NCBI GenBank assembly: GCA_964456395.1
Contig: CAYWAU010000002.1
Location: 1-37,626, forward strand
From: an uncultured Dehalococcoidaceae bacterium
Lineage (GTDB): Bacteria > Chloroflexota > Dehalococcoidia > Dehalococcoidales > RBG-16-60-22
DNA length: 37,626 nucleotides
Direction of reading: 5' to 3'
Made by a program: the position numbers and the translations under genes. The notes below the pieces were generated by a model, which saw nothing but the letters and a program-made list of their open reading frames with translations, searched no databases and was not told where the DNA came from. This document shows positions 6,991 through 31,638 of this stretch, one piece after another. Every line of letters begins with the position of its first letter. The stretch's first letter is position 1.

Positions 6991-7003
6991 GGGCACCTCA
7001 ATT

Positions 7004-7036: not shown

Positions 7037-7048
7037 AAGTAAAGACTC

Positions 7049-7087
7049 AACAAAAAGTCCTACCTCTCCCCCGCGGAGTGCTGTAGG
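7049..7087 (-). terminator. Second terminator-like hairpin in the riboswitch leader (distal)
   Basis: Minus-strand RNA CCUAC-AGCA-CUCC-GCGG-GGAG-AG-GUAGG is followed by ACUUUUUGUU. It lies between the aptamer and the proximal hairpin. Confidence 0.45.
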
Positions 7088-7089
7088 CT

Positions 7090-7210: not shown

Positions 7211-7230
7211 TGCTTATTCTGTTTTAGTCC

Positions 7231-7259
7231 AATATATAGTATCAGGTATAAAAATGCAA
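7231..7259 (-). promoter_or_regulatory. Candidate sigma70-type promoter for the riboswitch operon
   Basis: On the minus strand, TTGCAT (7254-7259), a 17-nt spacer and TATATT (7231-7236) lie about 20 nt upstream of the riboswitch aptamer. This is a motif match only. Confidence 0.3.
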
Positions 7260-7337
7260 GCTGGCGGATATCATGGTCTGTATTTGGAGGTTGTTTATTT
7301 TCGGCTATTTATGGATATCCACAGTGAAAGTGCCGGG

Positions 7338-8681: not shown

Positions 8682-9128
8682 TACTATTTTCTCCTTTCTT
8701 GAGTAACAGTTCGGCTACCGGTTCCTTAAGCCTTTCATTTTTCCTCTAAATGTCATCACCCTCAGCCATGAATGATTTTACAGTATCTGGCAGGGGTCTT
8801 CTGTCTGAGCCTGTATAGGTGATGGTTGTGTGCATTAGATGGTTATTTTTCAGTTCACGTTGGATGATAATATAAATACACGCCGAATGTCAAAAGTCTG
8901 GCGGATGTTCCACTGGAGTGAGTATAGCTGTCAACCACGATGGAACAGAACCATCTCAAGAAAGTAGTTGATAATTGCATTATAACAATACTTACAGTAG
9001 TATATGTACGAGGATACGAAATCCCTTACCGAAGTCGACTATGATTCAACCGCAGTATCCAATAAACAAACCCCAAAACAGGCATATTACAGGAGGTTTT
9101 TGCTTCTTAGAGCTTAAAGGAGGACAAA

Positions 9129-10085: not shown

Positions 10086-10147
10086 TTGCTGTTGACCTGT
10101 CTTGGTAGGGCCGCCATAGATTGAAGCCGCGAAGGAGGGAATAAAGT

Positions 10148-14293: not shown

Positions 14294-14758
14294 TTAGAGA
14301 ACTTGTTGTCGGCTGCGTCTCAGCTTCGCCCGAATGCGGGCTATAAGAGACCTTGTGCTGATAGGCTTGCTGATATAGTCGTCGGCACCGAGGAGCAGTG
14401 CCTTCCGTAGTGATTCTACTTCATGCTTTGCGGTGAGCATGATAACGGGAACATTAGAATGCTCTCGTATAAGGTCAAGAGTCTGAAAACCGTCAAGCCC
14501 CGGCATTATTATGTCCAGGATGACCAGGTCCGGCTCAATTTCCTCCAGTAGCGTCAGCGCTGAGTCGCCATCAGCGACGACCACAGTATCAAAGCCTTCC
14601 AGCTCAAGGGTGCGGTTAAGCAATTTCAGCATCTCCCGGTCATCATCTACCACCATAATGCGTTGTTGTTCATTCATTGCTGACAAAGCTCCCTTAGCTT
14701 GGTTCTGTGAGTTGTCGTTTTTCAGTTTTGCGAATTTCTGGGTGGCACTATCTCCCAC
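14294..14758 (-). CDS. Stand-alone response-regulator receiver (REC) protein, OmpR-type REC without a wHTH output
   Basis: IMVVDDD...DLVILDIIMPGLDG...VIMLTAK...GADDYISKP ends in RIRAKLRR, where OmpR-family linkers begin. The probable true start is the internal ATG at 14677 (MNEQQRIMVVDDD). Confidence 0.8.
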   Translation of the reverse strand: MGDSATQKFAKLKNDNSQNQAKGALSAMNEQQRIMVVDDDREMLKLLNRTLELEGFDTVVVADGDSALTLLEEIEPDLVILDIIMPGLDGFQTLDLIREHSNVPVIMLTAKHEVESLRKALLLGADDYISKPISTRSLIARIRAKLRRSRQQVL

Positions 14759-15976: not shown

Positions 15977-16675
15977 TCAGGCTGGCTTTGACATTATATA
16001 GCCTATGCCGGGCCTGGTCAGGATATAGGATGGGTTCTTGGCGTCATCTCCCAGCTTCTTCCTGAGCCGGGCTATATTTACTTGAAGGAGGTGTGGTGCG
16101 CCGACATATTCCTCACCCCATACCTTATCCAGTAACTGGTCAGGCGTTACCACCCGGCCAGCATTGTACGAAATGTAAGACAACAGTCTGTACTCCGTGG
16201 AGGTCAAATTTAGCTCCTGATTGCTGACCATGACCCTGTGTGAAGTGAAGTCTATCACCAGGTCTTTATAACGGAATACGGACCTCGTAGGATTATCTTG
16301 AGTTCTGAAGCGGCGTAGCATCGCCCTAACTCGCGCCGCCAGCTCACTGGCGGAGAATGGTTTGGTTACATAGTCGTCGGCACCAATATCTAGTCCCTCA
16401 ACCTTTTCCTTGTCGTCGCCCCTGGCCGTAACCATTATGATAGGTACCTGTGAGAACTCGCGGATGTGCTGACACACCGTATATCCATCCATATCCGGCA
16501 TCATAATGTCGAGCAGTACTATGTCTGGGGTTTCCTTCTCGAATGTTTTTAGGGACGCTTCGCCACTGCTGGCTACGCTCACCTGGAAGCCCTCCAGTTC
16601 CAGCATGCGCCTTATCATACGTAGCATCCGAACGTCATCATCAACTACCAGAACCAATGCTTTCTTTGAGGACAT
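15977..16675 (-). CDS. OmpR/PhoB-family DNA-binding response regulator
   Basis: The REC domain reads LVLVVDDD...DIVLLDIMMPDMDG...IIMVTAR...GADDYVTKP. The winged-helix output reads LTSTEYRLLSYISYNAGRVVTPDQLLDKVWG...NIARLRKKL. The start is set at the ATG at 16675 (MSSKKALVL). Confidence 0.9.
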   Translation of the reverse strand: MSSKKALVLVVDDDVRMLRMIRRMLELEGFQVSVASSGEASLKTFEKETPDIVLLDIMMPDMDGYTVCQHIREFSQVPIIMVTARGDDKEKVEGLDIGADDYVTKPFSASELAARVRAMLRRFRTQDNPTRSVFRYKDLVIDFTSHRVMVSNQELNLTSTEYRLLSYISYNAGRVVTPDQLLDKVWGEEYVGAPHLLQVNIARLRKKLGDDAKNPSYILTRPGIGYIMSKPA

Positions 16676-16747
16676 GCTAGCACCTCTCTTTCTGGTGAAG
16701 GACATCATACTCAGCAACGAGCGCGGTCTTTGGCTGGTTCCCTTTCT

Positions 16748-18586
16748 TCATGGTTTAGCCCTCTTTGCCGTGGTGGTGAGGGGAAGGGTAAAGTAGATGG
16801 TACTTCCTTCTCCAATTTTACTCTCTGCCCAGATTCGACCACCGTGTGCTTCTACCAGACGCTGGCATATATATAGTCCTAGCCCAATACCATCCACACC
16901 TGAAGTCAGCCTTTGCTCGATTCGGTACATCCGGTCGAAGACGTTTGTCAGCTCCTCAGCAGGTATGCCCTTGCCCTGGTCGGCAACGCTGATGACCATC
17001 TCCTGCCCGGCTTGGCGGGCTGATATCAGTACCTCCGTTCCCAGTGGGGAGTACTTGACAGCATTATCAATGAGGTTGTCCAGCACCTGCCGAATACGCT
17101 TGGCGTCAATGTTTGCCCTTGGCAGTCTCTTTCCCAGCCTCAGAACTATGTTATACTGGTTAGCCCTGACACAGGCTTCAGCAGCTACCTGCCGGACAAG
17201 TTTTGAGATGCTGGTTGAACCCTTTTCCAGTTTTAGCAATCCCGACTCCATGCGGGAAGTGTCCAGGAGGTTATCGACAAGTTTGGCAAGCCTGTCTGTT
17301 GAGTTGTCTATGGATTTGAGGTAGTCCTTTATTTCATCAGAACCGAGCTTGGAGAAATAGTCAAGTATCATGGTTGAGTAGCCTTTTATCGTCGCCAAAG
17401 GAGTGCGCAGTTCATGGGAGACCGTGGCCAGGAGGTCAGTCTTCAGTTTATTCAGTTCCTCGTATTCAATCACCTTTCTCTCAAGATACTTGCGCTCGGT
17501 GAGGTCCGTGAGGTTTCCGAGGATGGCTTCTCTACCCTGGTAATAGATGGCGGAAACGGTCTGCATGACCCATTTGATTTGCCCGGTCTTGCTGAGAATC
17601 CGGTACTCAGACGGGTAAGGGAACTCATCCTTCTGCATCAATACGGTACTTGACTGGAACACATCGCTGTCCTCAGCGACGACAAGGCTCAGGAGCTCCC
17701 TGTCCCGTAATTCTTTTTCGCTGTAGCCGGTAAGCTTCTGGAACTGCGGGTTGGTATATTGCAGCCTGTCATCCTGAAGAATGTAAATGCCCAGCGGTGA
17801 ATCATGGGAAACCGTCCTGAGCAACTCTTCCGATTGTTTTCTCTCGGTGATGTCGGTTAGGATGGCGATTATACACGGTTCATCACCAATATTAATTGGC
17901 TCGGCAGAGTATAAACATGTACGTGTCTCGCCCGACTTGACACGTAACTCTAATTCCAGGTTACGAACTCTGCCCTGTTCCTTAAGCATCCGTACTGTTC
18001 TGGCGCGGTCTTCTGCATTAACCCCGATGCCGAGTTCAGCTGCACTGCGGCCAATCGCCTCTTGGCGGGTGCAGCCGCTAAAGCGGATAAAACTGTCGTT
18101 GACTTCAATAAATTTACCGTCTTCAAGAGTGGTAATAGAGGCAATATCGGGAGTGGCATGGAAAGCTTTTGAGAACTTTTCCTCTGACTTATGCAAGGCC
18201 TCCTCTGTCTGCCTGTGTTCGGTGATTATTCCCAGGCGCTCGGCAACAGCATCAAGCAGCAATCTCTCTTCTTTTGAGAATGGTCCTTCGTCTATCTCCG
18301 GCGTTGCTTCCAGGTAACTCACCTCCACCACGCCGGCTCTGGCTCCATGCACTATGATGTCCGAAGATTGCTTCCAGTCAGTCTCCCTGTAGTTCTCTGT
18401 CTTGAACTCTCTATCGTTTATCGTAATTCTGGCGCAGGCAATATCGGGATACTGCCATGCCCCGGCAAGCAGATTGGCTATCCTGGCATAGCGTTCATAT
18501 AGAGTGATATCCGGTGCTCCAGAAATGTTAGCAATATCGTAGAGGCATCTGAGCTCTTTGACGTGCTTATCTAAATCGTTCTTCAT
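16748..18586 (-). CDS. Cytoplasmic sensor histidine kinase (N-terminal uncharacterised sensor domain, 2 PAS, HisKA, HATPase_c)
   Basis: H-box VSHELRTPL, N-box DNLIDNAVKYSP, G-boxes DQGKGI and GIGLGLYI. Two PAS S-box modules each end in DITERK. No transmembrane segments are evident. Confidence 0.9.
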   Translation of the reverse strand: MKNDLDKHVKELRCLYDIANISGAPDITLYERYARIANLLAGAWQYPDIACARITINDREFKTENYRETDWKQSSDIIVHGARAGVVEVSYLEATPEIDEGPFSKEERLLLDAVAERLGIITEHRQTEEALHKSEEKFSKAFHATPDIASITTLEDGKFIEVNDSFIRFSGCTRQEAIGRSAAELGIGVNAEDRARTVRMLKEQGRVRNLELELRVKSGETRTCLYSAEPINIGDEPCIIAILTDITERKQSEELLRTVSHDSPLGIYILQDDRLQYTNPQFQKLTGYSEKELRDRELLSLVVAEDSDVFQSSTVLMQKDEFPYPSEYRILSKTGQIKWVMQTVSAIYYQGREAILGNLTDLTERKYLERKVIEYEELNKLKTDLLATVSHELRTPLATIKGYSTMILDYFSKLGSDEIKDYLKSIDNSTDRLAKLVDNLLDTSRMESGLLKLEKGSTSISKLVRQVAAEACVRANQYNIVLRLGKRLPRANIDAKRIRQVLDNLIDNAVKYSPLGTEVLISARQAGQEMVISVADQGKGIPAEELTNVFDRMYRIEQRLTSGVDGIGLGLYICQRLVEAHGGRIWAESKIGEGSTIYFTLPLTTTAKRAKP

Positions 18587-18707
18587 TTCTATTTACCGCT
18601 CATTGCAGAACTATCAATGGTTCTAAACAACTATAGTAATGAATCGCAATCAATCCGTCAAGTGTCCAAAAGAATTCGTGATTATGCTTAATGTCCGTCA
18701 ACATCTC

Positions 18708-20222
18708 CTACTTCTTCATAATAATTTCAAAAGTTATCATGCTCTCAACCTGGGTGGCTTCGGTCTCAGCACCCTCAGTTTGGACATTCCTTGCTTCATC
18801 TATCTCGGTAATGCGAACCTCAGAGAATGTCTCCTGCGCCTCTAAGGTTGTAGCATAGATTACAACCGTGAAGGGGCTATCGGTTTCCCCCTGCACGGCA
18901 ACCAGGTCAGTGTCTAAATCTATTGATGTAAAATGAGCCTGGGGTGGCAGAGCATCGGTCACCAGTTTCAGATTATTGGTGAAGTCACCCCGGCGGCTCA
19001 GTATGCTCTGGTGTCCATATCTCAGGGTTTCTATTCTGGCAGTTATCTCCCTGATGGTTTCCTCCGTTTTGTTTGCCTCCTCAATAGCGAGGTGAGCCAG
19101 ATTAAGTTCCCGGCTGACTCGGTGCAGTTCGTTTTGCAGGCGCGTGTTTTCAGCACCAAGCTGACTCTTGATCTGGTAGAAGGGGAACAGGAGGCCGATA
19201 GTAACTATCAGGAAAATACTTAGAAGTATATATCCCGTAGGTATCGGCTGGGCTCTGGTTTTGCGGTATTTTCCCGATAGTATGTTGATATTGATATCAT
19301 GGAAATGTGCATCTTCTCCTTTTACCGTAGTTTTCGGCGGCATCTTCTTCAGAGCCAGTCCCATATTGGCGGCGTATAAAGCAACGGGCAGGTCCGGCGG
19401 GAATTCCAATGGCGGGATTAGAGGTTCCACAGGGTATTCTATCTCAGCCTGGAGGAGTCCGCTAGTGGTAGCCTCGGCGGCCAGTTCGCCGGTCAGCAGC
19501 AAGGGTGTGGCTGGACTCAGGTGGTTATCCGGGTGGCTGCTCAGGTAGAAGGCTGCTGTTTTGGTTAGCTCATCGGCTAGGCGCCGGATATTGTCCTCGA
19601 GGGTGGCTCCTTCTCCTCTGGGACTTATGGTGTGCATGACCGTGGGAATGCCGTTGGCTATAAAGACAATATCGAAGCAGTCGGGCTCCAGGCTGGCAAT
19701 TATGGCATCTCCCCGGTTGGCGGCTCTGGCCAGCGCCAGTGGCTTCAAATCCATGAGATAGGGCTCCAGCCCGGCTACTGTCAGGGTCGCAATCATAGCA
19801 TCAATAAGGTTTCGCGGTACGCCCAGGACAAAGAAAGTCTGCTCGTCCTCTTTGCTCCTGATAGGCTGCCACGAAAGGTACAATTCATCCAGAGGCACCG
19901 ATATTTCTTTCCTGGCGGCGCGCTGGATAGCTTCCTCCAGAAGGGCGGGTTTCATCCGTGGCAGGTTCAGGAATCGGTAGGTGAAGGACAGACCGGTAAG
20001 GCTGGTGATTACCTTTTCTCTGGGTGCTTTTGCTGATTTAAACAGGGCATCAATAGCCTCACCGACAGCCTGTGGCTGCAGTATAAGTCCATCCCGGACC
20101 AGTCCCGACTTCAGGGGCAGGCTCTCCCACTTTTTTACCTGCCTGCCCTTAACCGTGAGGATTCTGATGCTGTCGGTACTGATACTTAGCGTAACATGCA
20201 TTTTTAAAAATACGCCTTTCAC
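18708..20222 (-). CDS. pilM: Type IV pilus assembly protein, PilM fused to a PilN-like transmembrane/coiled-coil module
   Basis: The N-terminal 300 aa look like an actin-like PilM ATPase fold (SIRILTVKG...GLVRDG.I......). They are followed by the TM helix ILLSIFLIVTIGLLFPFYQI, a coiled coil and a roughly 110-aa periplasmic-type domain like PilN. The start is GTG at 20222 or ATG at 20201. Confidence 0.75.
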   Translation of the reverse strand: MKGVFLKMHVTLSISTDSIRILTVKGRQVKKWESLPLKSGLVRDGLILQPQAVGEAIDALFKSAKAPREKVITSLTGLSFTYRFLNLPRMKPALLEEAIQRAARKEISVPLDELYLSWQPIRSKEDEQTFFVLGVPRNLIDAMIATLTVAGLEPYLMDLKPLALARAANRGDAIIASLEPDCFDIVFIANGIPTVMHTISPRGEGATLEDNIRRLADELTKTAAFYLSSHPDNHLSPATPLLLTGELAAEATTSGLLQAEIEYPVEPLIPPLEFPPDLPVALYAANMGLALKKMPPKTTVKGEDAHFHDININILSGKYRKTRAQPIPTGYILLSIFLIVTIGLLFPFYQIKSQLGAENTRLQNELHRVSRELNLAHLAIEEANKTEETIREITARIETLRYGHQSILSRRGDFTNNLKLVTDALPPQAHFTSIDLDTDLVAVQGETDSPFTVVIYATTLEAQETFSEVRITEIDEARNVQTEGAETEATQVESMITFEIIMKK

Positions 20223-20224
20223 CG

Positions 20225-20818
20225 CTACTCAGAGGTTGGAGGTTGAGTATAGATAGCCAGGTCCAGGCTGGCGTTTACGGGTACGGTTCCCTCGGGAGCG
20301 CTTTCTTCCCCGGATGGCTCAATTACTCTGGTAACGCTTAAATCCTCCACAATGAGCGTCGGAATCCCTCCTTTTTCCAGTTTGCTCAGGAAGCTGACCA
20401 TTTGTGTGAAGGTTCCCGCTACGGCTACATTTAACCGGAAAACAGAGTAGTCGTGGTCGCTAATGGCCTCTGTTGTCCGGGGTTGTGTTATCAGGGGTAT
20501 TGCCTTGACCTCGCATTCGTCGGCGAGCTTGAGGATGGTATTAACTATCCTGGTGCTGTTCATCTCGCCGGGGAATGTGCTCTGCTCGGCAGCCAGACTT
20601 GCCTGAACAGCCGACAACCGCGGCTCCAGGTCAACGGGAGGCTCCGGCATTTGCGCCAGAGTCTGGGTGGCGTCGGTGATTTGAGATGCCAGAGCCTCGT
20701 GCTCCGACCCCTTTTTCAGGTAGTCCAATCCGAGCCGGCAATAGGCCACAAGAAGGACAATAATTAATAGCGTTAGGAGTAATTTCCTGGTCTTCACTGG
20801 TGCCCCTCTTTTCTTCAT
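20225..20818 (-). CDS. pilO: PilO-like type IV pilus assembly protein
   Basis: 197 aa. A basic N-terminus is followed by a single TM (LLLTLLIIVLLVAYC), a coiled coil and a ferredoxin-like C-terminal region. It sits between pilMN and the minor pilins. Confidence 0.65.
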   Translation of the reverse strand: MKKRGAPVKTRKLLLTLLIIVLLVAYCRLGLDYLKKGSEHEALASQITDATQTLAQMPEPPVDLEPRLSAVQASLAAEQSTFPGEMNSTRIVNTILKLADECEVKAIPLITQPRTTEAISDHDYSVFRLNVAVAGTFTQMVSFLSKLEKGGIPTLIVEDLSVTRVIEPSGEESAPEGTVPVNASLDLAIYTQPPTSE

Positions 20819-20837: not shown

Positions 20838-21872
20838 TTATTCCCACGTTATGATACCCGTGCCGCCCTCAGGTTCAGGCATCACCAGGCAATCTGGATG
20901 TGGGGGATACTCTCCGGTATAGTTCTCATAGACATCGCCCAAGATATTCCCTTCGCGCACGATATTATTGATGGTTCCGGTGGCATAGACATCTTCGTAA
21001 ATACGAGCATTATTAGCCAGTTGAATCTTACTGGTAATACTGCCGGTGATATAAACATTGCCTTCAATCCTGGCGTTGTTATCAATGATAATAGTGGCTA
21101 TGCTGTTACCGATATAGACATCGCCTTTAATGATTGAATTGCCGCTAATATCAATATTGCCGGTAGTGTAGACACTGCCATAGATAACGGTGTTGTTCTC
21201 AAGATAGATATCGCCGCCGGCACAGACATTGCCGCCGACTTCAATGCTGCCGATTTCCGAGTTGTTATTGAGCGTGAGGTCCCCGCCCGCTGAGACATCA
21301 CCCCCGATGACGGCATTATTTGAAAGCTCCAGTTCGCCTTCAGCGACGACATCCCCGGTGACCTCGGCGTTATTACCCAGTGTGACATTTCCCGTGGCAT
21401 AGACGCTCCCGTCAACCTCAACATTGCCATCAATGCTGGCATCACCATCAATATAGACATCACCTTCGGTATCTTCATCAATGTCGCCATCGCTACTCCA
21501 GCCACCACCTCCTGACAGTACATAAGATTCAATTATGGTACTGTGTCCGTCGTCACTGGTGGCTGTGGCAGTGACCTCATATATAGATGAACCCAGGTTC
21601 TCGACAGAAACGGTCACTGTTTTGTTGTTTATGGTGAATTCCGGCAACGTCTCTGTCTCGCCCTCTGTCACTTCTAACTCTCCGCTCTGAAGGCTCCAGA
21701 TGGCATACTCAATGCCGGAATCACAGGAGTAAAGCTCGGTTATCCCCTGCTCATATACCCGAGAGCCAATCAGGCTGCTGCTGGCGTGGCCGAGGAATGG
21801 TGTTATCACCATTGTGCCTATGGCCAGAGCCAGCATGGCCAGGGGAAGAGCCTGCCCCTTTTCGCTATTCAT
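20838..21872 (-). CDS. PilX-like minor pilin fused to a bactofilin-like beta-helix repeat domain
   Basis: The N-terminus EKGQALPLAMLALAIGTMVITPFL is PilX_N-like (a G-x-A-L hydrophobic helix with no Glu5). Residues about 137-316 carry around 10 repeats of 17-21 aa, for example VYATGNVTLGNNAEVTGD / VVAEGELELSNNAVIGGD / VYTTGNIDISGNSIIKGD. The ATGA overlap with the upstream pseudopilin gene indicates co-translation. Confidence 0.65.
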   Translation of the reverse strand: MNSEKGQALPLAMLALAIGTMVITPFLGHASSSLIGSRVYEQGITELYSCDSGIEYAIWSLQSGELEVTEGETETLPEFTINNKTVTVSVENLGSSIYEVTATATSDDGHSTIIESYVLSGGGGWSSDGDIDEDTEGDVYIDGDASIDGNVEVDGSVYATGNVTLGNNAEVTGDVVAEGELELSNNAVIGGDVSAGGDLTLNNNSEIGSIEVGGNVCAGGDIYLENNTVIYGSVYTTGNIDISGNSIIKGDVYIGNSIATIIIDNNARIEGNVYITGSITSKIQLANNARIYEDVYATGTINNIVREGNILGDVYENYTGEYPPHPDCLVMPEPEGGTGIITWE

Positions 21873-22324
21873 TCTTCCTCCTCCGATGGCCGAAGATAAA
21901 CCTTATAGGTTCCATTGGCACTAACGTTGTCACGTCCCTCAGGGGATGAGGTTAAGGACATGGTAATAAGGCGGTTTTCGATGGAAAAATCGGCACTGGT
22001 AATATTCCGTGCCAGCGTCATCTGGTCGCCGCCAGCCGTACGGCGAAGCTCGGTGTCTGACAGATAATAGGTAATTGACGAGCTTTCGGAGATGGTCAGC
22101 AGCAACTCACCGTTGATGCTGGCAGTGCTGGCTCTCTGTCCGTCAAGGTTGAACCAGTGAGCGGCATTTTGCAGCTCGTGCATGGCGGTGAGCCTATCGT
22201 TGCCGTACTCGGTAACGGTAAGGATTTGATAGATGGCTGTGCCCAGAAAGCTGACAATAATTCCGGTGACGGCGACGGCTATAATCAGCTCCACCATGGT
22301 TAAACCCCGTTCATCCGACTTCAT
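21869..22324 (-). CDS. Prepilin-type N-terminal cleavage/methylation domain pseudopilin (PilW/GspJ-like)
   Basis: MKSDERG|LTMVELIIAVAVTGIIVSFL is a class III signal peptide with Glu5. 151 aa. The start overlaps the upstream stop (TAATG). Confidence 0.8.
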   Translation of the reverse strand: MKSDERGLTMVELIIAVAVTGIIVSFLGTAIYQILTVTEYGNDRLTAMHELQNAAHWFNLDGQRASTASINGELLLTISESSSITYYLSDTELRRTAGGDQMTLARNITSADFSIENRLITMSLTSSPEGRDNVSANGTYKVYLRPSEEEE

Positions 22325-22722
22325 TATCGATTCACCTTGTAGTCTTCAACTATTATTATGGTCTCGCTCTCCCGGTAGACAGTAACCGTTATTTTTTGTA
22401 TATCATCATCGGTGTCCGGGATAGAGGCAACCCCGACAGAGACGGTGTAACCTTCCGGTGTGTCCAAGGTGGGATAGGTTGTGGCTTCGGCGTCATAGGC
22501 ATGGCTTTTGGTGTATTCTAGCTGGGTCTGCACCAGGCTCTGTGCCACGACTTCCTCATCCTGCTTGCCGACGGCGATTGACCCTGCCGAAAGGGCGACG
22601 ACAAAGGCAACCACAGAGGTCCCTAGAACAGCCACGGCGACCAGCGTCTCTACCAGCCCCAGCCCCATCTGGTCTTGAGCCCGGTTTTTTACCCGTGCTA
22701 ATCTCTGTCTTATTGCCCCCAT
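22324..22722 (-). CDS. Prepilin-type pseudopilin (PilV-like)
   Basis: ...NRAQDQMG|LGLVETLVAVAVLGTSVVAF has Gly-1, Glu5 and a hydrophobic helix. 132 aa. Confidence 0.72.
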   Translation of the reverse strand: MGAIRQRLARVKNRAQDQMGLGLVETLVAVAVLGTSVVAFVVALSAGSIAVGKQDEEVVAQSLVQTQLEYTKSHAYDAEATTYPTLDTPEGYTVSVGVASIPDTDDDIQKITVTVYRESETIIIVEDYKVNR

Positions 22723-22744: not shown

Positions 22745-23956
22745 TTAATGCATTGACCTCAGTATGGAGTACAGCGGCGTTATCATGGAGAGAGCCAGAA
22801 AAACAACGACCATCCCGATGATTACCGTCAAGGCGGGTTCTATCATGGAAGTAAGAACGTCAATCCTGCGGTCAACCCTCCTTTCATAAAAGTCGGCCAG
22901 GGTGGCCAGGGTAGTGTCAATGGTGCCGGTCTTCTCTCCCACGACTACCATCTCCACCAGCAGTCGGGGGAAGAGCGCAATCTCAGCCATTGGTTGAGAC
23001 AGCCCCTGTCCCTGGACCAGCTTATTTCTGACATCACTCAATGCCTGGCGGATAATCCGGTTCCTGGTGGTTTGAATGGCGATATCTATCACCTGGGGCA
23101 GGCGCAGTCCAGCTTTCAGCAGCATTGAAGCGGTTTGACAGAACTGTTGCACATTACGCTCAATATTGATGGTGCCGATTACCGGTATTTTCAGCATCAG
23201 CCGGTCCATTGCCTGCTTTGCCGAGGGCAGTCTCAGCCAGCCGGCAGTTGACATAATGATGATTAATAATCCACCCAGAATATAGAGCCCATTGCTGGTA
23301 ATGAAGTCGGTGATGGTGATGAGCAGCCTCGTCATCCAGGGCAGTTCCGCACCGAGAGAAGTGAATAGTGCCACCAGTGGCGGCAGGGCTACCGTGATAA
23401 GCAGGATGGATACCCCGACGGCCATAAGCAAGACAAAGGCTGGGTAGAGCATGGCGCGTTTTATTTTTTGGGTGCTGGCTGCCTGTTTTTCCATGTAGCT
23501 GGCGGCCTGCCTCAGTCCGAGTTCCAGGTTGCCTGCCTGTTCGCTGGCTTGAATCACCTGACAATAGGTGTGGGGGAATACCTGTGGATACTGGCTGAGT
23601 GCCTGGGAGAGAGAGATGCCTCCCTGGATTTCCTCGACCAGGCCGCCGATGATTCTTTTCAGGGCTGGCTTGGAAGCCTGTCCCTCAAGCAGTTGTAGTG
23701 ACGTGAGCAGGGTAACACCGGACTCAATCAGGGTGGCTAACTGGTTGGAGAAATCAAGCACATCCTGAGTCTTAATCCCAAAGAGGGTTGGTATCAGTCT
23801 TTCCAAACCAAGCCCCGGCGGCACTTCTTTCAGGCTGAGGATATGCTGGTACCCGGCGCGATATAGGACTCCCTCGGCCAGACTTTCCGAAGTGACTTCA
23901 ATCGTGCCCTGTACAACCTTTTTATCAGTTGTATAGGCTCTATATTTATAGGCCAT
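22745..23956 (-). CDS. pilC: Type IV pilus platform protein (GspF/PilC family)
   Basis: 403 aa with a duplicated T2SSF domain. It has three TM segments and ends ...GMVVVFLALSMITPLYSI. Confidence 0.9.
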   Translation of the reverse strand: MAYKYRAYTTDKKVVQGTIEVTSESLAEGVLYRAGYQHILSLKEVPPGLGLERLIPTLFGIKTQDVLDFSNQLATLIESGVTLLTSLQLLEGQASKPALKRIIGGLVEEIQGGISLSQALSQYPQVFPHTYCQVIQASEQAGNLELGLRQAASYMEKQAASTQKIKRAMLYPAFVLLMAVGVSILLITVALPPLVALFTSLGAELPWMTRLLITITDFITSNGLYILGGLLIIIMSTAGWLRLPSAKQAMDRLMLKIPVIGTINIERNVQQFCQTASMLLKAGLRLPQVIDIAIQTTRNRIIRQALSDVRNKLVQGQGLSQPMAEIALFPRLLVEMVVVGEKTGTIDTTLATLADFYERRVDRRIDVLTSMIEPALTVIIGMVVVFLALSMITPLYSILRSMH

Positions 23957-24024: not shown

Positions 24025-25737
24025 TTAGTTAATGGAGAATACACTGCGCAGAACCTCGCTCACTGATGTAATGCCTTCTTTTACCTTAAGCATCCCATCT
24101 CGTTTCATCGTTATCATCCCTTCGGCAAGTGCCTGTGCTTTAATCTCACCGGCACCAGCATTGTTACGTAACATCTTCCTGATATCCTCGCTCATGACCA
24201 GGAACTCGAAAATGCCGGTTCGGCCCCGGTAACCGGTATTGGCACAGAGGTTGCATCCGGTTCCGTGGTAAAATGTGGTGGCTTCCGGCACCAGTTCCTT
24301 TTCAAGAGCCTGCTGCTCTTCCGTTGATGGTTGGTAGGAGGTACGGCAGTGAGGGCAGATACGGCGAACCATGCGCTGGGCAACAACGCCGATAAGCGTT
24401 GATGAGATTGAGGCTGGTTCAACATCCAGGTCCATCAGTCGGAAGAGCACACCAACGGCATCATTGGCATGAATGGAAGAAAGAACTAGGTGGCCGGTGA
24501 GGGCGGCTTGAATGGCCGTGGTCACCGTGTCGGTGTCCCGTATCTCACCGACCAGAATAACGTCAGGGTCATGACGCATGATAGCCTTGAGACCGCTGGC
24601 AAAGGTAATTCCGGCCTTGAGGTTAACCTGAATCTGGTTAATGTCCATGAAGCTGTATTCAATGGGGTCCTCGATTGTCATGATGTTGCGCTCATTTCGG
24701 TCCAGTTCGCTTATTGATGCGTAAAGGGTGGTCGTTTTGCCGGAACCGGTGGGGCCGCCCGCCAGTATCATACCGAGCGGGCTCTTCAGCATCGGCCGGT
24801 ACCTCTTCAGAACATCGGGCAGAAAGCCAAGCTCGGCTAAAGTAAAGAGAGCCAGAGACTTGTCCAGAATCCGCAAGGTCACCCTCTCACCGTAGGGCGT
24901 TTCCATGGTGGCGACTCGAATATCGACTTCATTACTGCCCAGTTTGATTGAGAATTGTCCGTCCTGAGGGCGTCTTTGTTCGGAGATGTCCATATCAGCT
25001 AGAATTTTGACACGTGACACCAGTGACACGTGGGCACTGAGCGGCAAGGAGAACATATCGTGCAGGATACCGTCAATCCGGTAGCGAATCCTCAGCCGGT
25101 CTTCCTGTGGTTCAATATGGACATCCGAGGCTCTGTCCTTGACAGCCTGGGCAACCAGCAGGTCAAGGGTTTCCGCAATCGGGGTCCTGGCCGTAAGTGT
25201 CGAAGCGGTATCTGTTATTTTATCTCCAGAGACAGGGGCCATTTGGCTTACCTGTTTCTCTATTTCACCGCTTGACCTGTAGTTGAGGTCAATGGCTCGC
25301 TCAATGTCGGAGCGGACACCGAGGGCCACCTCCACCCTCATCTTCGCCTGAGTCTTAACGTCTTCAATGGTGTGGATGTCCTCCGGGTCAGCCATAACCA
25401 CTACTAGCGAGTCGTTGACTATGTCAAGGGGTATCAGGGCATGTTTACGAGCCATTTCTTCAGGGATGAGGCGAAGAGCCTGAGGCTGGATGGTGTGTCT
25501 CTTCAGGTCTATTAGCGGCAGGTTTAACTGAATGCTGAGCACGGTGGCCAGTACCTCAGCTTTGACCACCCCCTGGTTTATCAGAGTCTCACTGAGCTTC
25601 CCTCCCTGCTGCCGCTGCAGCGCCAGGGCGCTCTCCAGTTGTTCCGGGGTAATGAGGTTCTCCTCAACCAGCATTTCACCCAGGCTTTTTTTAGATGTCC
25701 TATCCGTGATAAAGGGTCTGGTATTATCTCTATCCAT
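24025..25737 (-). CDS. pilB: Type IV pilus assembly ATPase (GspE/PilB family) with an N-terminal T2SSE_N/MshEN-like domain
   Basis: Walker A GPTGSGKTT, Asp box, Walker B ILVGEIRD, His box, and a tetracysteine zinc motif CPHC...CNLC. Confidence 0.93.
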   Translation of the reverse strand: MDRDNTRPFITDRTSKKSLGEMLVEENLITPEQLESALALQRQQGGKLSETLINQGVVKAEVLATVLSIQLNLPLIDLKRHTIQPQALRLIPEEMARKHALIPLDIVNDSLVVVMADPEDIHTIEDVKTQAKMRVEVALGVRSDIERAIDLNYRSSGEIEKQVSQMAPVSGDKITDTASTLTARTPIAETLDLLVAQAVKDRASDVHIEPQEDRLRIRYRIDGILHDMFSLPLSAHVSLVSRVKILADMDISEQRRPQDGQFSIKLGSNEVDIRVATMETPYGERVTLRILDKSLALFTLAELGFLPDVLKRYRPMLKSPLGMILAGGPTGSGKTTTLYASISELDRNERNIMTIEDPIEYSFMDINQIQVNLKAGITFASGLKAIMRHDPDVILVGEIRDTDTVTTAIQAALTGHLVLSSIHANDAVGVLFRLMDLDVEPASISSTLIGVVAQRMVRRICPHCRTSYQPSTEEQQALEKELVPEATTFYHGTGCNLCANTGYRGRTGIFEFLVMSEDIRKMLRNNAGAGEIKAQALAEGMITMKRDGMLKVKEGITSVSEVLRSVFSIN

Positions 25738-26155
25738 TCACGTTCTCCTGGGTGGGTGCCTTCTGCTTCTTTTTTGCCAGCAGGCTTTCTACGTGGTTTA
25801 CTATATCGGCAGGTGCGGCGGGTTTTGACAGGTAGTCGTCGGCACCCACTTTCAGTCCGGTATCCTTGTCTATTTCCTGGGCTTTCGCTGAGAACATTAG
25901 AATAGGCAGTTGGGCAGTATCGGGTTCGGACCGCAGGCGGTGGCATATCTCAAAGCCGTCCATGCCCGGTAACATGACATCCAGAATGATAAGGTCAGGT
26001 GCTTCATTGTGCGCTTTCCGTATCCCTTCCAGTCCATTGGATGCTGTAAGCACCTGGTAACCCTCATACCTGAGGGAATAGTCAACTAATCTCAATGTAG
26101 CCGGGTCATCTTCAATAACCAGTATTTTCTTATCCACGGTCATCTCCTTTTCCAT
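25730..26155 (-). CDS. Stand-alone REC (CheY-like) response regulator, translationally coupled to pilB
   Basis: ILVIEDD...DLIILDVMLPGMDG...ILMFSAK...GADDYLSKP, with no output domain. Its stop overlaps the pilB ATG (ATGGATAG, 25730-25737). The start is uncertain (ATG 26155, ATG 26143 or GTG 26137) and overlaps the upstream kinase stop. Confidence 0.85.
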   Translation of the reverse strand: MEKEMTVDKKILVIEDDPATLRLVDYSLRYEGYQVLTASNGLEGIRKAHNEAPDLIILDVMLPGMDGFEICHRLRSEPDTAQLPILMFSAKAQEIDKDTGLKVGADDYLSKPAAPADIVNHVESLLAKKKQKAPTQENVNG

Positions 26156-27953
26156 TTAGAGGCAGGGTGAAACTAAAGGTGCTGCCTTCACCGGCTCGGC
26201 TCACCGCCCAGATATGTCCACCATGTGCCTCAATAATCTGCTTTGAGATATAAAGCCCCAGTCCCGTCCCCCCCCTGGCCAGCTTATCCTCAGCCCGGTA
26301 GAACCTCTCAAAGAGGTGCGGCATGGCTTCTTCAGGAATGCCGATACCCCGGTCGGTTACCTGGAATGAAAGCTCCCCGTTCCGACTCTCTGTCTTAGCC
26401 GTGACACTGCCGCCGGGGTCGCTGTACTTGATAGCGTTGCTGAGCAGGTTGATGACCACTTGCGCCAGTCGGTCGCCATCTGCCTCTATCTCAGGTAGTT
26501 TCGCCGGTATATCTTCGTTGAGTTCAATATTCTTGTCGTGGGCCAGGCTGTGGAAGCTCTTTATGGCGTCAACAATGGTATCCCTTATCGGCAGGAGCCG
26601 CTTATTGATTTGAAATCGGCCGGCTTCAAGTCGTGATAAATCCAGCAGACTGTTAATGAGGTTGCCGAGGTGCTGGCTTTCTCTATCAATAATCTGCAGG
26701 AATTCCTGCTGGGTCTCGGCGTCAGGCACTTTACCCTGGAGAATCAATTTGGTAAAGCCTGCAATTGACTGGAGTGGCGTGCGCAGCTCATGTGAGACGT
26801 TGGAGAGGAATTCGGATTTCATCTGGTCGATTTTACGCAGCTTCTCCTCCCCCCGCTTTCGCTCGGTGATGTCAATTGTCACGGAGATTATACATGGTTC
26901 ACCGCCAATATTGATTGGCTCGGCTGAGAAAAGCCATACGCGTATCTCGCCTGACTTCATACGGATGTCGAATTCTTCATTGTTGACCCTGCCCTGTTCC
27001 TTCAGTATCTGTGTCATTCTGGTGCGGTCCTCTGCCTTTGCCCAGAGACCAAGTTCAGTTGAACTGTGGCCAATCACCTCTTCATGGGTGTAGCCGGTAA
27101 TACGGGTGAAACTGTCATTAACTTCAATAAATCTGCCGTCTTTAAGCGTGGTGATGGCGACTGCATCAGGACTGGAGCGAAAGGCTTTGGAGAACTTTTC
27201 CTCTGACTCTTGCAATGCCTCCACAGCCCGCTTTAACTCGGTGATGTCGCGCAGTGATGCCAGGTAGGCGGGTTCGCCTTCCCAGTCTATATCCACCACA
27301 CGCATCTCAGCTACGTTTTTCTCTACACCTTGGCGGGTGATTTCAATCTCTGATGTCTTACCGCCCTTCAGGGGAAAATCAAACGGTTTGTTCAGGAGCT
27401 CTTTCTTCTTGCGCCCGAGGAGATATTCTGCGGCCGGGTTGGCGAAGAGGATGTGCCTGTTCTTGCTGATAACGATGATGGCATCGGCGTTCTTATCTAG
27501 AATTTTGCAGAGATTGGCTTGGACTTTCCATATCTCCTGTGCATACTGCTCCAGTTCCCTCTGCAGTTGAGACCGTTCAATGGCGTAGAAAAGGGCGCGT
27601 TCTACCTGGTGGTCCTCCATTTGTCCTTTCACCAGATAGTCTTGGGCACCCAGCTGAACCGCCTTTATAGCCAGCGCTTCATCATCAAAGCCGCTCAGTA
27701 TCACCACCGGTATGTGTGGTGCCTCACAGAGAATCTTACTGATGGTGTCGAGCCCATGGCTATCAGGCAGACCGAGGTCCGATAAAACCAGGTCAGCCCC
27801 ATCTCTGGCAAGGTATTCCAGCCCCTCTTTAAGCCTTGTTGCTGGTGTTACCGTGAACTGACTCTTACCGGACCTAGCCAGTTTCCTCCGTATCAACTCG
27901 GCGTCATCCGGGTTATCTTCAATAAGCAAGATTCTAATCGTTTTGTCTTCCAT
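26130..27953 (-). CDS. Hybrid sensor kinase: N-terminal REC, 2 PAS, HisKA, HATPase_c
   Basis: The REC domain reads IRILLIEDNPDD...DLVLSDLGLPDSHG...VVILSGF. The H-box is VSHELRTPL, and the N and G boxes are NLLSNAIKYS, DRGIGI and GTGLGLYI. I use the ATG at 27953; the ORF-track TTG at 27974 is an alternative. Confidence 0.9.
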   Translation of the reverse strand: MEDKTIRILLIEDNPDDAELIRRKLARSGKSQFTVTPATRLKEGLEYLARDGADLVLSDLGLPDSHGLDTISKILCEAPHIPVVILSGFDDEALAIKAVQLGAQDYLVKGQMEDHQVERALFYAIERSQLQRELEQYAQEIWKVQANLCKILDKNADAIIVISKNRHILFANPAAEYLLGRKKKELLNKPFDFPLKGGKTSEIEITRQGVEKNVAEMRVVDIDWEGEPAYLASLRDITELKRAVEALQESEEKFSKAFRSSPDAVAITTLKDGRFIEVNDSFTRITGYTHEEVIGHSSTELGLWAKAEDRTRMTQILKEQGRVNNEEFDIRMKSGEIRVWLFSAEPINIGGEPCIISVTIDITERKRGEEKLRKIDQMKSEFLSNVSHELRTPLQSIAGFTKLILQGKVPDAETQQEFLQIIDRESQHLGNLINSLLDLSRLEAGRFQINKRLLPIRDTIVDAIKSFHSLAHDKNIELNEDIPAKLPEIEADGDRLAQVVINLLSNAIKYSDPGGSVTAKTESRNGELSFQVTDRGIGIPEEAMPHLFERFYRAEDKLARGGTGLGLYISKQIIEAHGGHIWAVSRAGEGSTFSFTLPLNGKGDDRG

Positions 27954-28008
27954 TTTACGGCAGCTGGTTGTCAATTTTACTCGCGATTGGTATATGTATA
28001 ATATTCAC

Positions 28009-28455
28009 TTAAGGTTGATGTGGTGTTTCATTTATGAGCAGCCAGTAGAGTCCTATCTGGCGCACGGCTTCAACGAACTGGTTAAAGTCCACCGGTTTAC
28101 GGACGTAGCTATTCGCCCCCGACTTGTATCCGCTGACAAGGTCCTGTTCTTCTTTTGACGAGGTGAGAATGACCACCGGGATAAGCTCGGTGCGCTCATC
28201 GGCGCGCAGACGTTCCAGTACCTGCAGTCCGTCCACTTTGGGCAGTTTCAAATCAAGCAAAATAATCCTTGGCGTGTCATTAGCATTATGGTCAGCGTAG
28301 GCTCCGGTGCCGAAGAGGTAGTCCAGCGCTTCCGCACCGTCACGGGCTATCGCCACACCGTTGGCGATATTGTTTTTTCTGAATGCCCGCAGTGTCAGTT
28401 CAACATCGTCAGGGTTGTCTTCCACCAGCAGTATTGTGTCTCCTTTTGCCTTCAT
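28009..28455 (-). CDS. Stand-alone REC response regulator (Rcp1-like)
   Basis: ILLVEDNPDDVELTLRAF...IILLDLKLPKVDG...VVILTSS...GANSYVRKP. 148 aa. A GGAGG RBS is present. It lies 12 nt downstream of the membrane kinase. Confidence 0.87.
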   Translation of the reverse strand: MKAKGDTILLVEDNPDDVELTLRAFRKNNIANGVAIARDGAEALDYLFGTGAYADHNANDTPRIILLDLKLPKVDGLQVLERLRADERTELIPVVILTSSKEEQDLVSGYKSGANSYVRKPVDFNQFVEAVRQIGLYWLLINETPHQP

Positions 28456-28467: not shown

Positions 28468-31065
28468 TTAGCTAAGCGTAAAGTAGAAGGTGGCACCTTT
28501 CCCCGCAGTCCCTTCCGCCCAGACACTGCCACCGTGGCGGTGAATGATGCGTTGTACCGTAGCCAGACCAATGCCGGTGCCGGGGAACTCGGTGGTGTCG
28601 TGCAGGCGCTGGAAGGCGCCAAACAGCTTGTTGGCATAGGTCATGTCAAAGCCGGCACCGTTGTCCCGTATAAAGTAAGCTTTCTTGCCGCCGTTCCGGG
28701 TAGCACCGAACTCTATTCTTGCCTGCTGGCGCTTGCCGGTAAATTTCCAGGCATTGTCGAGCAGGTTCTCCAGTAAAACTCGCAACAGCTGGTGGTCTCC
28801 GCTGGTGGTTAGACCTTTGGCGATGACAAACTCAGCCTGGCGTTCCGGCTGTGTCTGCTGAAGCCTGGCGGCAATCTCCTTGGCCAGTGCACTCAGGTCT
28901 AACTTTTCTTTACGCATTTCGCTTCTGGTCAGGCGGGACAGCTTCAGCAAACCATCAATGAGTTCCCCCATTTTTTGACTGGCAGCGCGCAGGCGGGTCA
29001 GGTAGTCATTACCCTGCTCATCAAGCTTATCCGGGTAGTCTTCCAGCAGTGCCTGACTGAAACCGTCAATGGTCCTGAGGGGTGCTCGCAGGTCATGCGA
29101 GACGGAGTAGCTAAAGGCTTCTAGCTCTTTGTTGGTGGCCGCCAGTTGGGTGCTGGAGTGTTCCAGATTAGACAGCGCCTTTTTTATTATTTCTTCATGC
29201 TGCTTGCGCTCGGTAATGTCCCGGCACACGCAGAAAATCAGCTTTTCTCCCGCGAATACAGCCGCATTGGTGCTTATTTCAACGTCATAGATGGTACCAT
29301 CTTTGCGTCGGTGTTGCGTCTCGAAGTGGTCGCCGGTCTCATCAACACTCCGGAGCATATCCTGCACTTGCTCACGTGTAAATTGAAACTCCCAATCCCA
29401 CACCTGGAGCTGATAGGCTTCTTCCAGGGAGTATCCGAGCATCTCGGCAAATCGCTGGTTAGACTCATATACGTTGCCATTCTGATCAAGGACAACAATC
29501 CCGTCTCTGGACTGCTCGACTAGGATGCGCCGCCGGATTGCTTCGTTAGCCAGAGCTTCCTCCGCCTGCTTGCGCTCGGTGATATCATTAATGACGCTAA
29601 GTATACACGGTTTATCACCAATGCTAATTATCTCGGCTGAGAACTGTACTATCTGTATCTCACCTGATTTGTTACGGAGATGGACTTCTTCATTCTGAAC
29701 TCTGCCGTGTTCCCTCAGTGTCTGAAATACTCTGTCGCGCTCCTCTGCCTTTACCCACATATTGAGATCAGCAGCACAGCGTCCGATGAGTTCTTCACGG
29801 GTATAGCCGGAAATACGGTGACTGCTTTCATTACATTCAATTATCGTGTCATCTTCAAGCGTATTGATGCTGATGGACAAGGGGCTGGAACGGAAGGCTT
29901 TGGAGAACTTTTCCTCCGACTCCCGCAAAGCCTGCTCTGCCCTCTTGCGCTCGATAGCGATGGCAGCAATACGAGCTGACCACTCCAGCACCCTGAGGTT
30001 GTCGGCATCCGGCTCACCCACCTTGTTGCTATAGTTGGCTATGGTGCCGAGCAGGTCTCCATTGGATGAGATTATGGGTTGTGACCAGCAGGAGAGCAGG
30101 CCGTTGTTGGTTGTCCGCTTGACAACTTCCTCCAATGGTTTAAAGAGAGGGCTGTTCTCAATGTCCGTGACGATTACCCGCTCCTTCAGATAAGCCGCAG
30201 TCCCACAGGAACCCGCACTCGGTCCAATAGGTATCCCGTCTTCAAATAGCTCATTGTAATCATCGGGTAAACTTGGGGCGGATGCTAGAGCCAGCCGTTC
30301 TCTTGAGGAATCAAAGAGCAGCACAGAGCCTTTGATAGAAGGGTCATGATATTCGCCCAAATGGACAATGGCGTCCAGCAGTTCGCTTAATTCCGCCCCC
30401 TGCCCTAAAAGGGTAAGCACGTAATTCTCATCATTTTGTAGCTGCTCCCCTTTTTGGCGCTCGGTGAGCTGGTGCTCAATTTCGGACTGGTCATATTGGC
30501 GGACTGCAGTAATCGCTATTACCAAAAAGAATATCATGAAGATAAAAGACAGTGGTTGCATTAGGCTTGCTGATGATATATCAAGTAATGGTACGAGAAG
30601 TACGATGGCAAGCAAGTAACTGACGGCGACAATTATGGCATGACGCAGAGATAGCATCAAGCTGGAGATAAGCAATGGCAGAGTCAGCCATAATATGTTA
30701 TTCTGAATATTCGCTTCGTTAGAACTGGAGAGAATCATGATAAGAATTAAGATGCCTGGGATGCTGACCACGGATGCCGTTGCCTGTCTGTAGTATCCGG
30801 TACGGTTGAGACTGTAGCCGATAGCATGGACAGCAGCAATAGCCAGCAGAATAAACCATGAGCTGTCGCCGGCATTCTTTGATACCACTGCCCCCATCAG
30901 GGCACTGATAGTAACAAGTAGCATAAAAGCTGATAGCCATGCCGCACGTCGGCGTTGCTTTTCCTCCATACTGGCTGATGGTTCAATTATCCAGCGTAAG
31001 GCAGTGTAGATATGCCGGAAGACGTTGTCTTTTATACACTGCCTGCGCAGTAACCCGGTTGCCAT
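28468..31065 (-). CDS. Membrane sensor histidine kinase (about 6 TM, GAF, 2 PAS, HisKA, HATPase_c)
   Basis: Six hydrophobic helices fall in residues about 40-190. A GAF-like region covers about 215-370. Two PAS modules each end in DITERK. The H-box is VSHDLRAPL, with G-boxes DNGAGF and GTGIGLA. A GGAGG RBS lies 5 nt before the ATG at 31065. Confidence 0.9.
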
Positions 31066-31161: not shown

Positions 31162-31524
31162 CTAATAACCATCATCTGCCTGCGTAACCAGTCCGGTAGT
31201 ACTGCAGGAATAGGTTCCTTTGGTTGTCGCCGTCCGCAGGTAGTTGGGGTACAGGGCATTACCGGTAGGGAAAGCCGACATGTTACTGGTTGCCGAGGTA
31301 TCCGTAACCGAAGTCAGGCTGTTCTTGGCCATCATGGTATCCATGGCGGTCTGGACAGTAACCAGTTCGGCCTTGGCGGCTTCTGTCTGGCCTTCGCCAG
31401 CGAGTCCGGTTACATTGGGCAGGACGACCGCCGCCAGTATCCCCAGAATGGCGACAACGATAAGCAGTTCTACCAGGGTGAAGCCTTTGCCATCACGATT
31501 AATTCTTTTTAGTAACTTTGGCAT
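31162..31524 (-). CDS. pilA: Type IV major pilin (prepilin)
   Basis: MPKLLKRINRDGKG|FTLVELLIVVAILGILAAVVLP is a canonical class III signal peptide with Phe1/Glu5. The mature protein is about 106 aa. The start is set at the ATG at 31524, preceded by GGAGG; the ORF-track start at 31566 adds 14 unlikely residues. Confidence 0.87.
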   Translation of the reverse strand: MPKLLKRINRDGKGFTLVELLIVVAILGILAAVVLPNVTGLAGEGQTEAAKAELVTVQTAMDTMMAKNSLTSVTDTSATSNMSAFPTGNALYPNYLRTATTKGTYSCSTTGLVTQADDGY

Positions 31525-31638
31525 AATACTGCCTCCTGCATCATTTTTTAGGTTTAACCTTCTCATTGTTCCCCTCCTAGGAGATTGCTAACCTGAATAT
31601 TTAAGTGGATTCATTCTATAAAATCTGTTTACCATACT

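Follow-up and report, generated by a model that had tools for sequence, protein, structure and literature searches.

A Glu5-less minor pilin with a beta-solenoid payload, the probable tip subunit of a type IV filament machine in Chloroflexota

Results and Discussion

The contig CAYWAU010000002.1 of an uncultured Dehalococcoidaceae bacterium (assembly GCA_964456395.1; the complete stretch of 37,626 nucleotides analyzed is referred to as the window) contains on its minus strand, at positions 20838-21872, a gene whose product is probably the capping minor pilin, of the GspK/PilX class, in a type IV filament machine of Chloroflexota (Dehalococcoidia-like), with a beta-solenoid as the presumed tip cap and adhesin. 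The reading frame is present as initially annotated; its 344-residue product, hereafter the tip pilin, opens with MNSEKGQALPLAMLALAIGTMVITPFLGHA and is strongly acidic (pI approximately 4.05; 53 Asp and Glu versus 8 Lys and Arg residues). According to the homologues and the AlphaFold2 (AF2) model, a polar leader (MNSEKG, 21855-21872) that ends at Gly6 is followed by a hydrophobic alpha-1N segment of 21 residues (QALPLAMLALAIGTMVITPFL, 21792-21854) with Leu at the mature position +5, by a pilin globular domain (residues 28-121, 21510-21791) comprising the rest of helix alpha-1 and a four-stranded sheet, and by a beta-solenoid of approximately ten coils (residues 125-320, 20913-21500). The alignment delimits a Pro-rich return linker (residues 321-338, 20859-20912; conserved P323 and Cys328), behind which the chain ends in the strand GIITWE (residues 339-344, 20841-20858), the putative last strand of the pilin sheet.

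Pilin module and N-terminus

In 90 Chloroflexota relatives Gly6, located immediately ahead of the hydrophobic stretch, shows no exchange, and the residue at the mature position +5 is Glu in none of 101 homologues (Leu in 43, Ala in 15, Ile in 13, others in the remainder); the Glu5 of ordinary pilins is thus missing from this pilin-type N-terminus, as the initial annotation had stated. The G-x4-E motif is present in 68 of 76 and 72 of 76 homologues, respectively, of the two pseudopilins encoded directly upstream (the GspI-like protein of 132 residues, pp132, and the GspJ/ComGF-like protein of 151 residues, pp151), and in 25 of 27 major pilins. A profile of the N-terminal domain (the N-terminal 121 residues of 22 family members) was aligned by hhalign with the pp132 family at a probability of 96.5% and an E-value of 7.9e-10 over 109 columns that include leader, glycine, helix and sheet. 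In this alignment Glu5 of pp132 lies opposite a Leu of the tip pilin family and Gly6 opposite the -1 Gly of pp132; cleavage by prepilin peptidase would probably occur after Gly6.

In the full-length AF2 model (49-sequence alignment; mean predicted local distance difference test score, pLDDT, 84.7) residues 5-63 form an uninterrupted helix that is followed by a four-stranded sheet at residues 73-119, an arrangement that corresponds, as modeled, to the lollipop fold of pilins; the small globular region expected behind the N-terminal helix is borne out by these strands. Residues Y48, D51, G53, E55, N82, V86 and Y98 are hallmarks of this domain in the family. The Foldseek search with the full model ranked ComZ of Thermus (6qvi) first (E 6.8e-3, probability 0.82) and yielded a partial match to PilA2 (6qvf), the partner pilin of ComZ (probability 0.97 over 48 columns).

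Several results speak against the assignment as a pilin. Pfam PilX_N (PF14341) does not match the whole protein at E<=1 or the N-terminal domain alone at E<=10; sub-threshold matches, at the correct N-terminal position, occur in only two distant relatives (E 0.19 and 0.59). The N-terminal domain profile found nothing significant among the PDB sequences (best E 0.13), the full-length family profile has no significant sequence similarity to ComZ 6qvi (E 1.2), and all Foldseek E-values are weak (>=7e-3) with low TM-scores. In addition, GHA↓SSS behind the hydrophobic stretch is a formally possible signal peptidase I site in this protein, and RNA runs are not listed with the gene. The NCBIfam gspK and pilX models likewise do not match the tip pilin, and no Pfam model matches the N-terminal domain; that N_methyl fails to match the tip pilin is to be expected when Glu5 is missing. 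Nevertheless, the profile homology, the predicted fold, the invariant Gly without Glu5 and the unconserved GHA together argue for a minor pilin that lacks Glu5, belongs to the GspK/PilX class and lies outside the curated PilX_N model. Of the PilX_N-style N-terminus proposed initially, the affiliation with this class was retained, whereas the Pfam family itself was not found.

The same N-terminus would also be compatible with a beta-helix surface protein that is exported via Sec, either anchored in the membrane or secreted, and is a mere bystander in the pil operon: The n-h-c layout with GHA↓S behind the hydrophobic stretch could pass as a Sec signal peptide, Pfam finds no pilin domain, and the tapirins, the best structural matches of the solenoid, are beta-helix adhesins linked to a pilus locus and not described as pilins (bioRxiv 10.1101/359786). 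This explanation is very unlikely, however, as the Gly ahead of the hydrophobic stretch is invariant and GHA is not conserved in more distant relatives, the profile-profile homology to the adjacent pseudopilin extends over leader, helix and sheet, the model has a continuous helix from residue 5 to 63 instead of a cleavable peptide, and the gene occupies a fixed third position after two pseudopilin genes with overlapping stop and start codons.

The beta-solenoid domain

Self-similarity within residues 125-320 peaks at lags of 6, 12 and 18 residues, with an identity at lag 18 of 0.236 versus approximately 0.04-0.10 at most lags outside the period. Residues 137-327 (nucleotides 21464-20892) can be divided into ten coils of 18-23 residues, and the initial count of about ten consecutive repeats, including all examples quoted for it, was thereby confirmed. 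Tandem Repeats Finder detected no repeat at the DNA level; the repetition therefore exists at the protein level only and is ancient. Modeled alone (residues 122-330, 21 sequences), the domain formed a continuous beta-helix of approximately 190 residues (pLDDT 92.1, pTM 0.88), as had been presumed. It contains 32 Asp and Glu versus 5 Lys and Arg residues, and a Tyr recurs at the same coil position in seven coils.

Pfam Bactofilin (PF04519) matches residues 135-205 with 39.4 bits (gathering cut-off 27.9) and an E-value of 7.6e-10, so that the match is not due to chance. The best Foldseek matches of the isolated solenoid were tapirin C-terminal domains (6n2b and 4wa0; probabilities of 1.00 and 0.99, TMq 0.44, E 7e-3, identity 14-15%), and the bactofilin structures 6ria and 2n3d were not among the 50 best. 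In the search of the full-length profile against the PDB, the solenoids of YdcK, hexapeptide, ice-binding and bactofilin proteins scored about equally weakly; the bactofilins 6ria and 2n3d (E 0.016-0.017) did no better than the hexapeptide or ice-binding solenoids. Assignment to a single solenoid family by sequence was rejected on account of these weak and mixed matches. The initial description as a bactofilin-like beta-helix is consequently upheld by Pfam but not by the structural search: The term is fair for the repeat and is no proof of membership in the bactofilin family. Left-handed hexapeptide enzymes reached a Foldseek probability of at most 0.14 against the solenoid. The better-scoring tapirin, antifreeze and two-partner-secretion helices are right-handed, which for the handedness of this solenoid is a hint only.

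A true bactofilin-type polymer of solenoids stacked end to end, acting either in the cytoskeleton or as a nucleus of extracellular polymerization, would agree with the Pfam score above the gathering threshold and with the public naming of relatives as "polymer-forming cytoskeletal protein" and "CcmA (bactofilin family)". Such a function is extremely improbable: Apart from the poor ranking of the solved bactofilins, the solenoid is situated behind the membrane-spanning pilin helix and would therefore be extracytoplasmic, both of its ends are tied to the pilin module (via the N-terminal domain and the return linker), by which end-to-end stacking would be blocked, and DUF7305 domains or Kelch propellers take its place in relatives.

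Putative insertion topology and disulfide

The Pro-rich tail noted initially was recovered as residues 322-337 (YPPHPDCLVMPEPEGG). DSSP assigns a strand to residues 339-343, and the terminal motif phi-x-[ST]-[WY]-x persists whatever the payload; it is also present in payload-less relatives of 162-171 residues. This conservation suggests that the payload is inserted ahead of the last pilin strand, the topology described for ComZ and for all cyanobacterial PilX proteins (PMC6561018; bioRxiv 10.64898/2026.02.12.705559). The support for this topology is limited by two results: Linker and last strand were modeled at a pLDDT of only approximately 55, and the covariation of the C-terminal strand with the pilin domain, measured as mutual information over 197 non-redundant sequences (Neff approximately 127), did not rise above that of shuffled alignments (top value 0.151 versus a shuffled mean top value of 0.163), so that the topology remains inferential. 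The payload probably forms an insertion ahead of the final pilin strand rather than a simple fusion to the C-terminus; the fusion claimed originally holds insofar as both modules reside in one chain, but its C-terminal arrangement is probably not correct. The 18-residue Pro-rich segment would then act as a return connector that runs back along the solenoid. Cys217 (VCAGG in a mid-solenoid coil, 21222-21224) and Cys328 (P-x-C in the connector, 20889-20891) co-occur in 100 of 111 full-length homologues and may form a disulfide, stapling the return linker onto the solenoid.

Family, distribution and payloads

The protein collection contained 274 full-length relatives, and the N-terminal domain profile matched 2,909 clusters (at 50% identity) at E<=1e-3, of which 1,307 at E<=1e-10, the domain being always N-terminal. 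Among the contigs of one genome per species of GTDB, 249 stretches carried a relative; the best 80 of these derive from metagenome-assembled genomes (MAGs) of Dehalococcoidia, Anaerolineae and Chloroflexia, except for one record labeled only "bacterium". In 91 Chloroflexota copies the upstream sequence was long enough for an assessment: 81 come directly after a pp151-like pseudopilin gene or another copy of the tip pilin gene (X), and 85 are located in a locus with type IV pilus (T4P) genes, the other six being orphans; the supposition that homologues reside in pil operons therefore applies almost always. The operon order is kept in the loci L001, L002 and L004, and look-ups of four single homologues showed this order around P0007, P0075 and the DUF7305 variant P0111, and part of it around P0113.

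The relatives range in length from 162 to 968 residues. Their payloads, as identified by Pfam in 90 relatives, comprise Bactofilin (27), DUF7305 (24), Ice_binding (10), pAdhesive_15 (7) and Kelch (5). In the public databases, members of the family (entries P0004-P0101) are named "predicted acyltransferase (DUF342 family)", "polymer-forming cytoskeletal protein", "cytoskeletal protein CcmA (bactofilin family)" or "adhesin HecA-like repeat protein", and none of these names recognizes the pilin module. The literature search found no paper on DUF7305, and nothing relevant to the tip pilin family on bactofilins associated with minor pilins or on Dehalococcoidia pilins.

Several loci contain more than one copy. 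Two full pp132-pp151-X triads are present in each of L041, L051, L070 and L083, and a second triad is partly seen in L019, L058 and L061; X genes occur in tandem in L025 (four at 2285-8894) and in L003 (three at 1633-6918). These duplicated triads and runs of X paralogues, which differ in payload size (proteins of approximately 300 to 968 residues), stand behind a single PilB-PilC pair and recall the two priming sets of cyanobacteria. The payload-less versions of 162-171 residues, which consist of the pilin module and the terminal strand only, were found in Anaerolineae MAGs (L034:7977-8483, L064:196-711, L065:7986-8495, L068:7986-8474); L034, L065 and L068 are without T4P genes within 8 kb. 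The gene of L034 converges on a ComEC-like gene (8588-10972); this adjacency is not conserved in other loci.

Operon and genomic neighborhood

The tip pilin gene is part of an operon of the order PilB-PilC-pp132-pp151-X-GspM-PilMN on the minus strand, with a response regulator gene (25730-26155) at its head. The PilB/GspE assembly ATPase (24025-25737) was identified by T2SSE (419.6 bits) and MshEN (73.2 bits), and the PilC/GspF platform protein (22745-23956) by T2SSF (198.7 bits). The upstream pseudopilins pp132 (22324-22722; weak match to TIGR01707 gspI, E 0.002) and pp151 (21869-22324; N_methyl PF07963, 24.2 bits; ComGF-like below threshold) both possess the prepilin motif G-x4-E in canonical form (G↓LGLVE in pp132, G↓LTMVE in pp151). 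Downstream of X follow a GspM/PilO-like bitopic assembly protein (20225-20818; T2SSM_b 23.1 bits, cut-off 21.7; NCBIfam GspM E 7e-8, below its cut-off) and a PilM-PilN fusion protein of 504 residues (18708-20222; PilM_2 41.3 bits, PilN 28.4 bits). The postulated translational coupling to two conventional pseudopilins is evident from the overlap of the pp151 stop with the tip pilin start codon (gaATGAat), just upstream of which lies the Shine-Dalgarno sequence GGAGGAGG, and from the single base shared by the pp132 and pp151 genes (TAATG). The scan for promoters and terminators within the operon gave nothing above shuffled sequences.

A candidate major pilin of 134 residues (G↓FTLVE; N_methyl 36.9 bits) is encoded at 31162-31566, approximately 9 kb upstream, and is separated from the operon by sensor kinase and response regulator genes; homologues of this pilin occur near related operons. 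Genes for a prepilin peptidase (peptidase A24), PilT and a secretin are absent from the window, which counts against the assignment as the capping pilin of a type IV filament machine.

The gene set has also to be considered with respect to a short pseudopilus similar to that of the type II secretion system (T2SS), i.e. a secretion piston at whose tip the solenoid would act as plug or substrate-contact surface. The GspM-like and GspL/PilM-like scores of the accessory proteins, the resemblance of the trio to GspI-J-K, the missing PilT in the window and the finding that GspK is structurally the nearest relative of the ComZ pilin domain (PMC6561018) would be in line with this interpretation. It is nonetheless improbable, given that a separate major pilin with a canonical motif is encoded nearby, that no secretin gene is present in the window, that the MshEN domain of PilB is typical of pilus ATPases, and that many related loci contain a PilT-like ATPase of approximately 355 residues right after PilMN, which indicates retractile pili.

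This PilT-like ATPase directly follows PilM-N in most related loci (L004-L006, L009, L010 and L012 compared); in the window (16748-20222 compared) and in its closest relative L001 the slot is occupied by a histidine kinase, so that the retraction ATPase is encoded elsewhere or absent. The PilM-PilN fusion and the next gene, which scores as GspM and not as PilO, give the operon a hybrid T2SS/T4P appearance that is kept across related loci. Two-component genes are unusually dense around it (14294-14758, 15977-16717, 16748-18586, 25730-26155, 26130-27974, 28009-28455 and 28468-31065) and encode four receiver proteins as well as three PAS/GAF histidine kinases, including a hybrid kinase; they flank the operon on both sides and separate the major pilin gene from it, an arrangement also present in L001. 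On the same strand and at higher coordinates, the major pilin gene is adjoined by an open reading frame of 1,721 residues (32315-37480, minus strand) with CARDB, TIG and ML-like domains that probably encodes a large surface protein. At the opposite end of the window, a cobalamin lower-ligand and salvage cluster (269-7053, minus strand; CobS, CobT-type phosphoribosyltransferase, CobD aminotransferase, CbiB) is adjoined by a BtuCDF-type ATP-binding cassette importer, which fits a corrinoid-dependent lifestyle of Dehalococcoidia. The contig matches salt-marsh and marine-sediment metagenomes, and the named relatives nearest to it are MAGs of uncultured Dehalococcoidaceae and Dehalococcoidales.

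Proposed role of the tip pilin

The following sequence of events is proposed. The N-terminal helix would anchor the prepilin in the membrane, and prepilin peptidase would probably trim the protein after Gly6. Judging from gene order and by analogy with GspI-J-K and PilV-W-X, it would then be joined by the GspI-like and the GspJ/ComGF-like pseudopilins in a 1:1:1 priming complex on the platform of PilC, PilM-N and the GspM-like protein. With Leu in place of Glu at position +5, no subunit would be needed above the tip pilin, which would therefore end in the uppermost position; this is established for the GspK/PilX class and presumed here. The rigid, triangular solenoid of approximately ten coils, looped out of the pilin fold ahead of its last strand, would be approximately 5 nm long at 4.8 Å per coil, acidic and equipped with a ladder of Tyr residues; tied back by the Pro-rich, probably disulfide-stapled linker, it would be displayed at the filament tip as a plug or cap and, most likely, as an adhesin (binding) module. 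The adhesin is favored by the resemblance to tapirins, the Tyr ladder and the swapping of payloads among relatives that keep the pilin module, a pattern expected for a binding module. A combined cap and adhesin at the pilus tip is the most likely role.

The alternative that the solenoid captures extracellular DNA for uptake, as a ComZ-like receptor in a competence (Com-type) pseudopilus, is suggested by ComZ being the top structural match of the whole protein, as ComZ binds DNA and has been proposed to be located at the tip (PMC6561018). The 151-residue neighbor resembles ComGF (NF041002, E 2e-6, below its cut-off), the order of PilB and PilC followed by minor pilins recalls comG operons, and the payload-less relative in L034 adjoins the ComEC-like gene. 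DNA binding of ComZ, however, needs lysines (PMC6561018), and the extreme acidity of the tip pilin and its solenoid argues against a comparable DNA capture; moreover, neither a ComEA nor a ComEC gene is present in the window, the ComEC adjacency is not conserved, and the sequence similarity to ComZ is not significant. A function as DNA receptor is therefore regarded as unlikely, and the cap and adhesin reading is preferred.

A wider interpretation is put forward only tentatively: The tip pilin may be a "cassette" subunit used throughout the Chloroflexota, i.e. a Glu5-less scaffold, represented by at least approximately 2,900 clusters, that accepts interchangeable payloads (bactofilin-like solenoid, DUF7305, ice-binding-like solenoid, Kelch propeller) before its last strand, and duplicated triads might initiate filaments of different function on one PilB/PilC machine. 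If true, payload exchange would make pilus-tip specificity programmable in these sediment bacteria, which are largely uncultured, similar to that of phage receptor-binding proteins.

Comparison with known systems

The initial annotation had regarded the architecture as an unusual pilus-tip structure. It is less unusual than had been assumed, as the same solenoid-on-pilin design has precedents in ComZ (2019) and in cyanobacterial PilX (2026 preprint). New are the phylum, the pilin module that lacks a Pfam model (approximately 2,900 clusters), the regular, bactofilin-scoring solenoid and the modular payload slot. For the pilus specialist the result is confirmatory rather than surprising, yet a large family is defined by it, and the beta-solenoid on a Glu5-less tip pilin now extends beyond Thermus and the cyanobacteria to a third phylum, which branches deeply and is for the most part uncultured. 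The result lends support to the emerging view that in lineages without PilY1-type tip plugs or adhesins such solenoids take their place, corrects the systematic mis-annotation of the family as cytoskeletal protein, DUF342 acyltransferase or CcmA, and offers with the payload diversity a handle on the attachment targets of sediment Dehalococcoidia and Anaerolineae.

ComZ of Thermus thermophilus (PDB 6QVI) resembles the tip pilin in its pilin-like domain, its GspK-like role, its large triangular beta-solenoid, its location beside the gene of a partner minor pilin, the proposed restriction to the tip, and in having been missed by pilin predictors (PMC6561018). In contrast to the approximately 190-residue solenoid with regular 18-residue coils of the tip pilin, that of ComZ has approximately 380 residues and is irregular, bent and similar to ice-binding proteins (PMC6561018); in addition, the ComZ host is diderm and possesses the secretin PilQ, whereas no secretin is encoded in the window. 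The cyanobacterial PilX proteins (PilX1-3 of Synechocystis and the HpsA-related PilX-EPS; bioRxiv 10.64898/2026.02.12.705559) likewise lack Glu5 and are the terminal subunits of a core set of priming minor pilins; their solenoid was proposed to replace the PilY1 "plug", and several sets per genome prime different filaments in cyanobacteria (same preprint), comparable to the duplicated triads in several Chloroflexota genomes. Compared by description only, the tip pilin differs from them in its phylum, in its pilin module not covered by a model, and in its payload (Pfam Bactofilin, with DUF7305 or Kelch in sister proteins).

The capping class of GspK, PilX (P. aeruginosa) and PilK shares with the tip pilin the -1 Gly, the missing Glu5 and an extra bulky domain, as well as the translationally coupled gene position after GspI- and GspJ-like genes. 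Unlike the solenoid, the extra domain of GspK is alpha-helical and lies between strands 3 and 4 (PMC6561018), and, unlike this class, the tip pilin is matched by neither Pfam PilX_N nor NCBIfam gspK. One further protein in the literature, encoded by the last gene of a putative pilin cluster and containing a bactofilin motif, has the same Pfam combination and is only mentioned there.

The tapirins of Caldicellulosiruptor (PDB 4WA0, 6N2B), to which the isolated solenoid is structurally most similar, are cellulose adhesins encoded beside a type IV pilus locus; their three-faced beta-helix has at least 11 turns, its ends are joined by a long connector, and one of its faces bears a line of aromatic residues (bioRxiv 10.1101/359786). 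In contrast to the tip pilin, no pilin domain was described for them, the crystallized part being the C-terminal domain (same preprint). The bactofilins (BacA, BacM, TtBac; PF04519), finally, share the coils of approximately 18 residues and the triangular beta-helix with the solenoid of the tip pilin; they are cytoplasmic, have approximately six coils and disordered tails and polymerize end to end, whereas the solenoid of the tip pilin, with its approximately ten coils, would be extracytoplasmic and embedded in a pilin.

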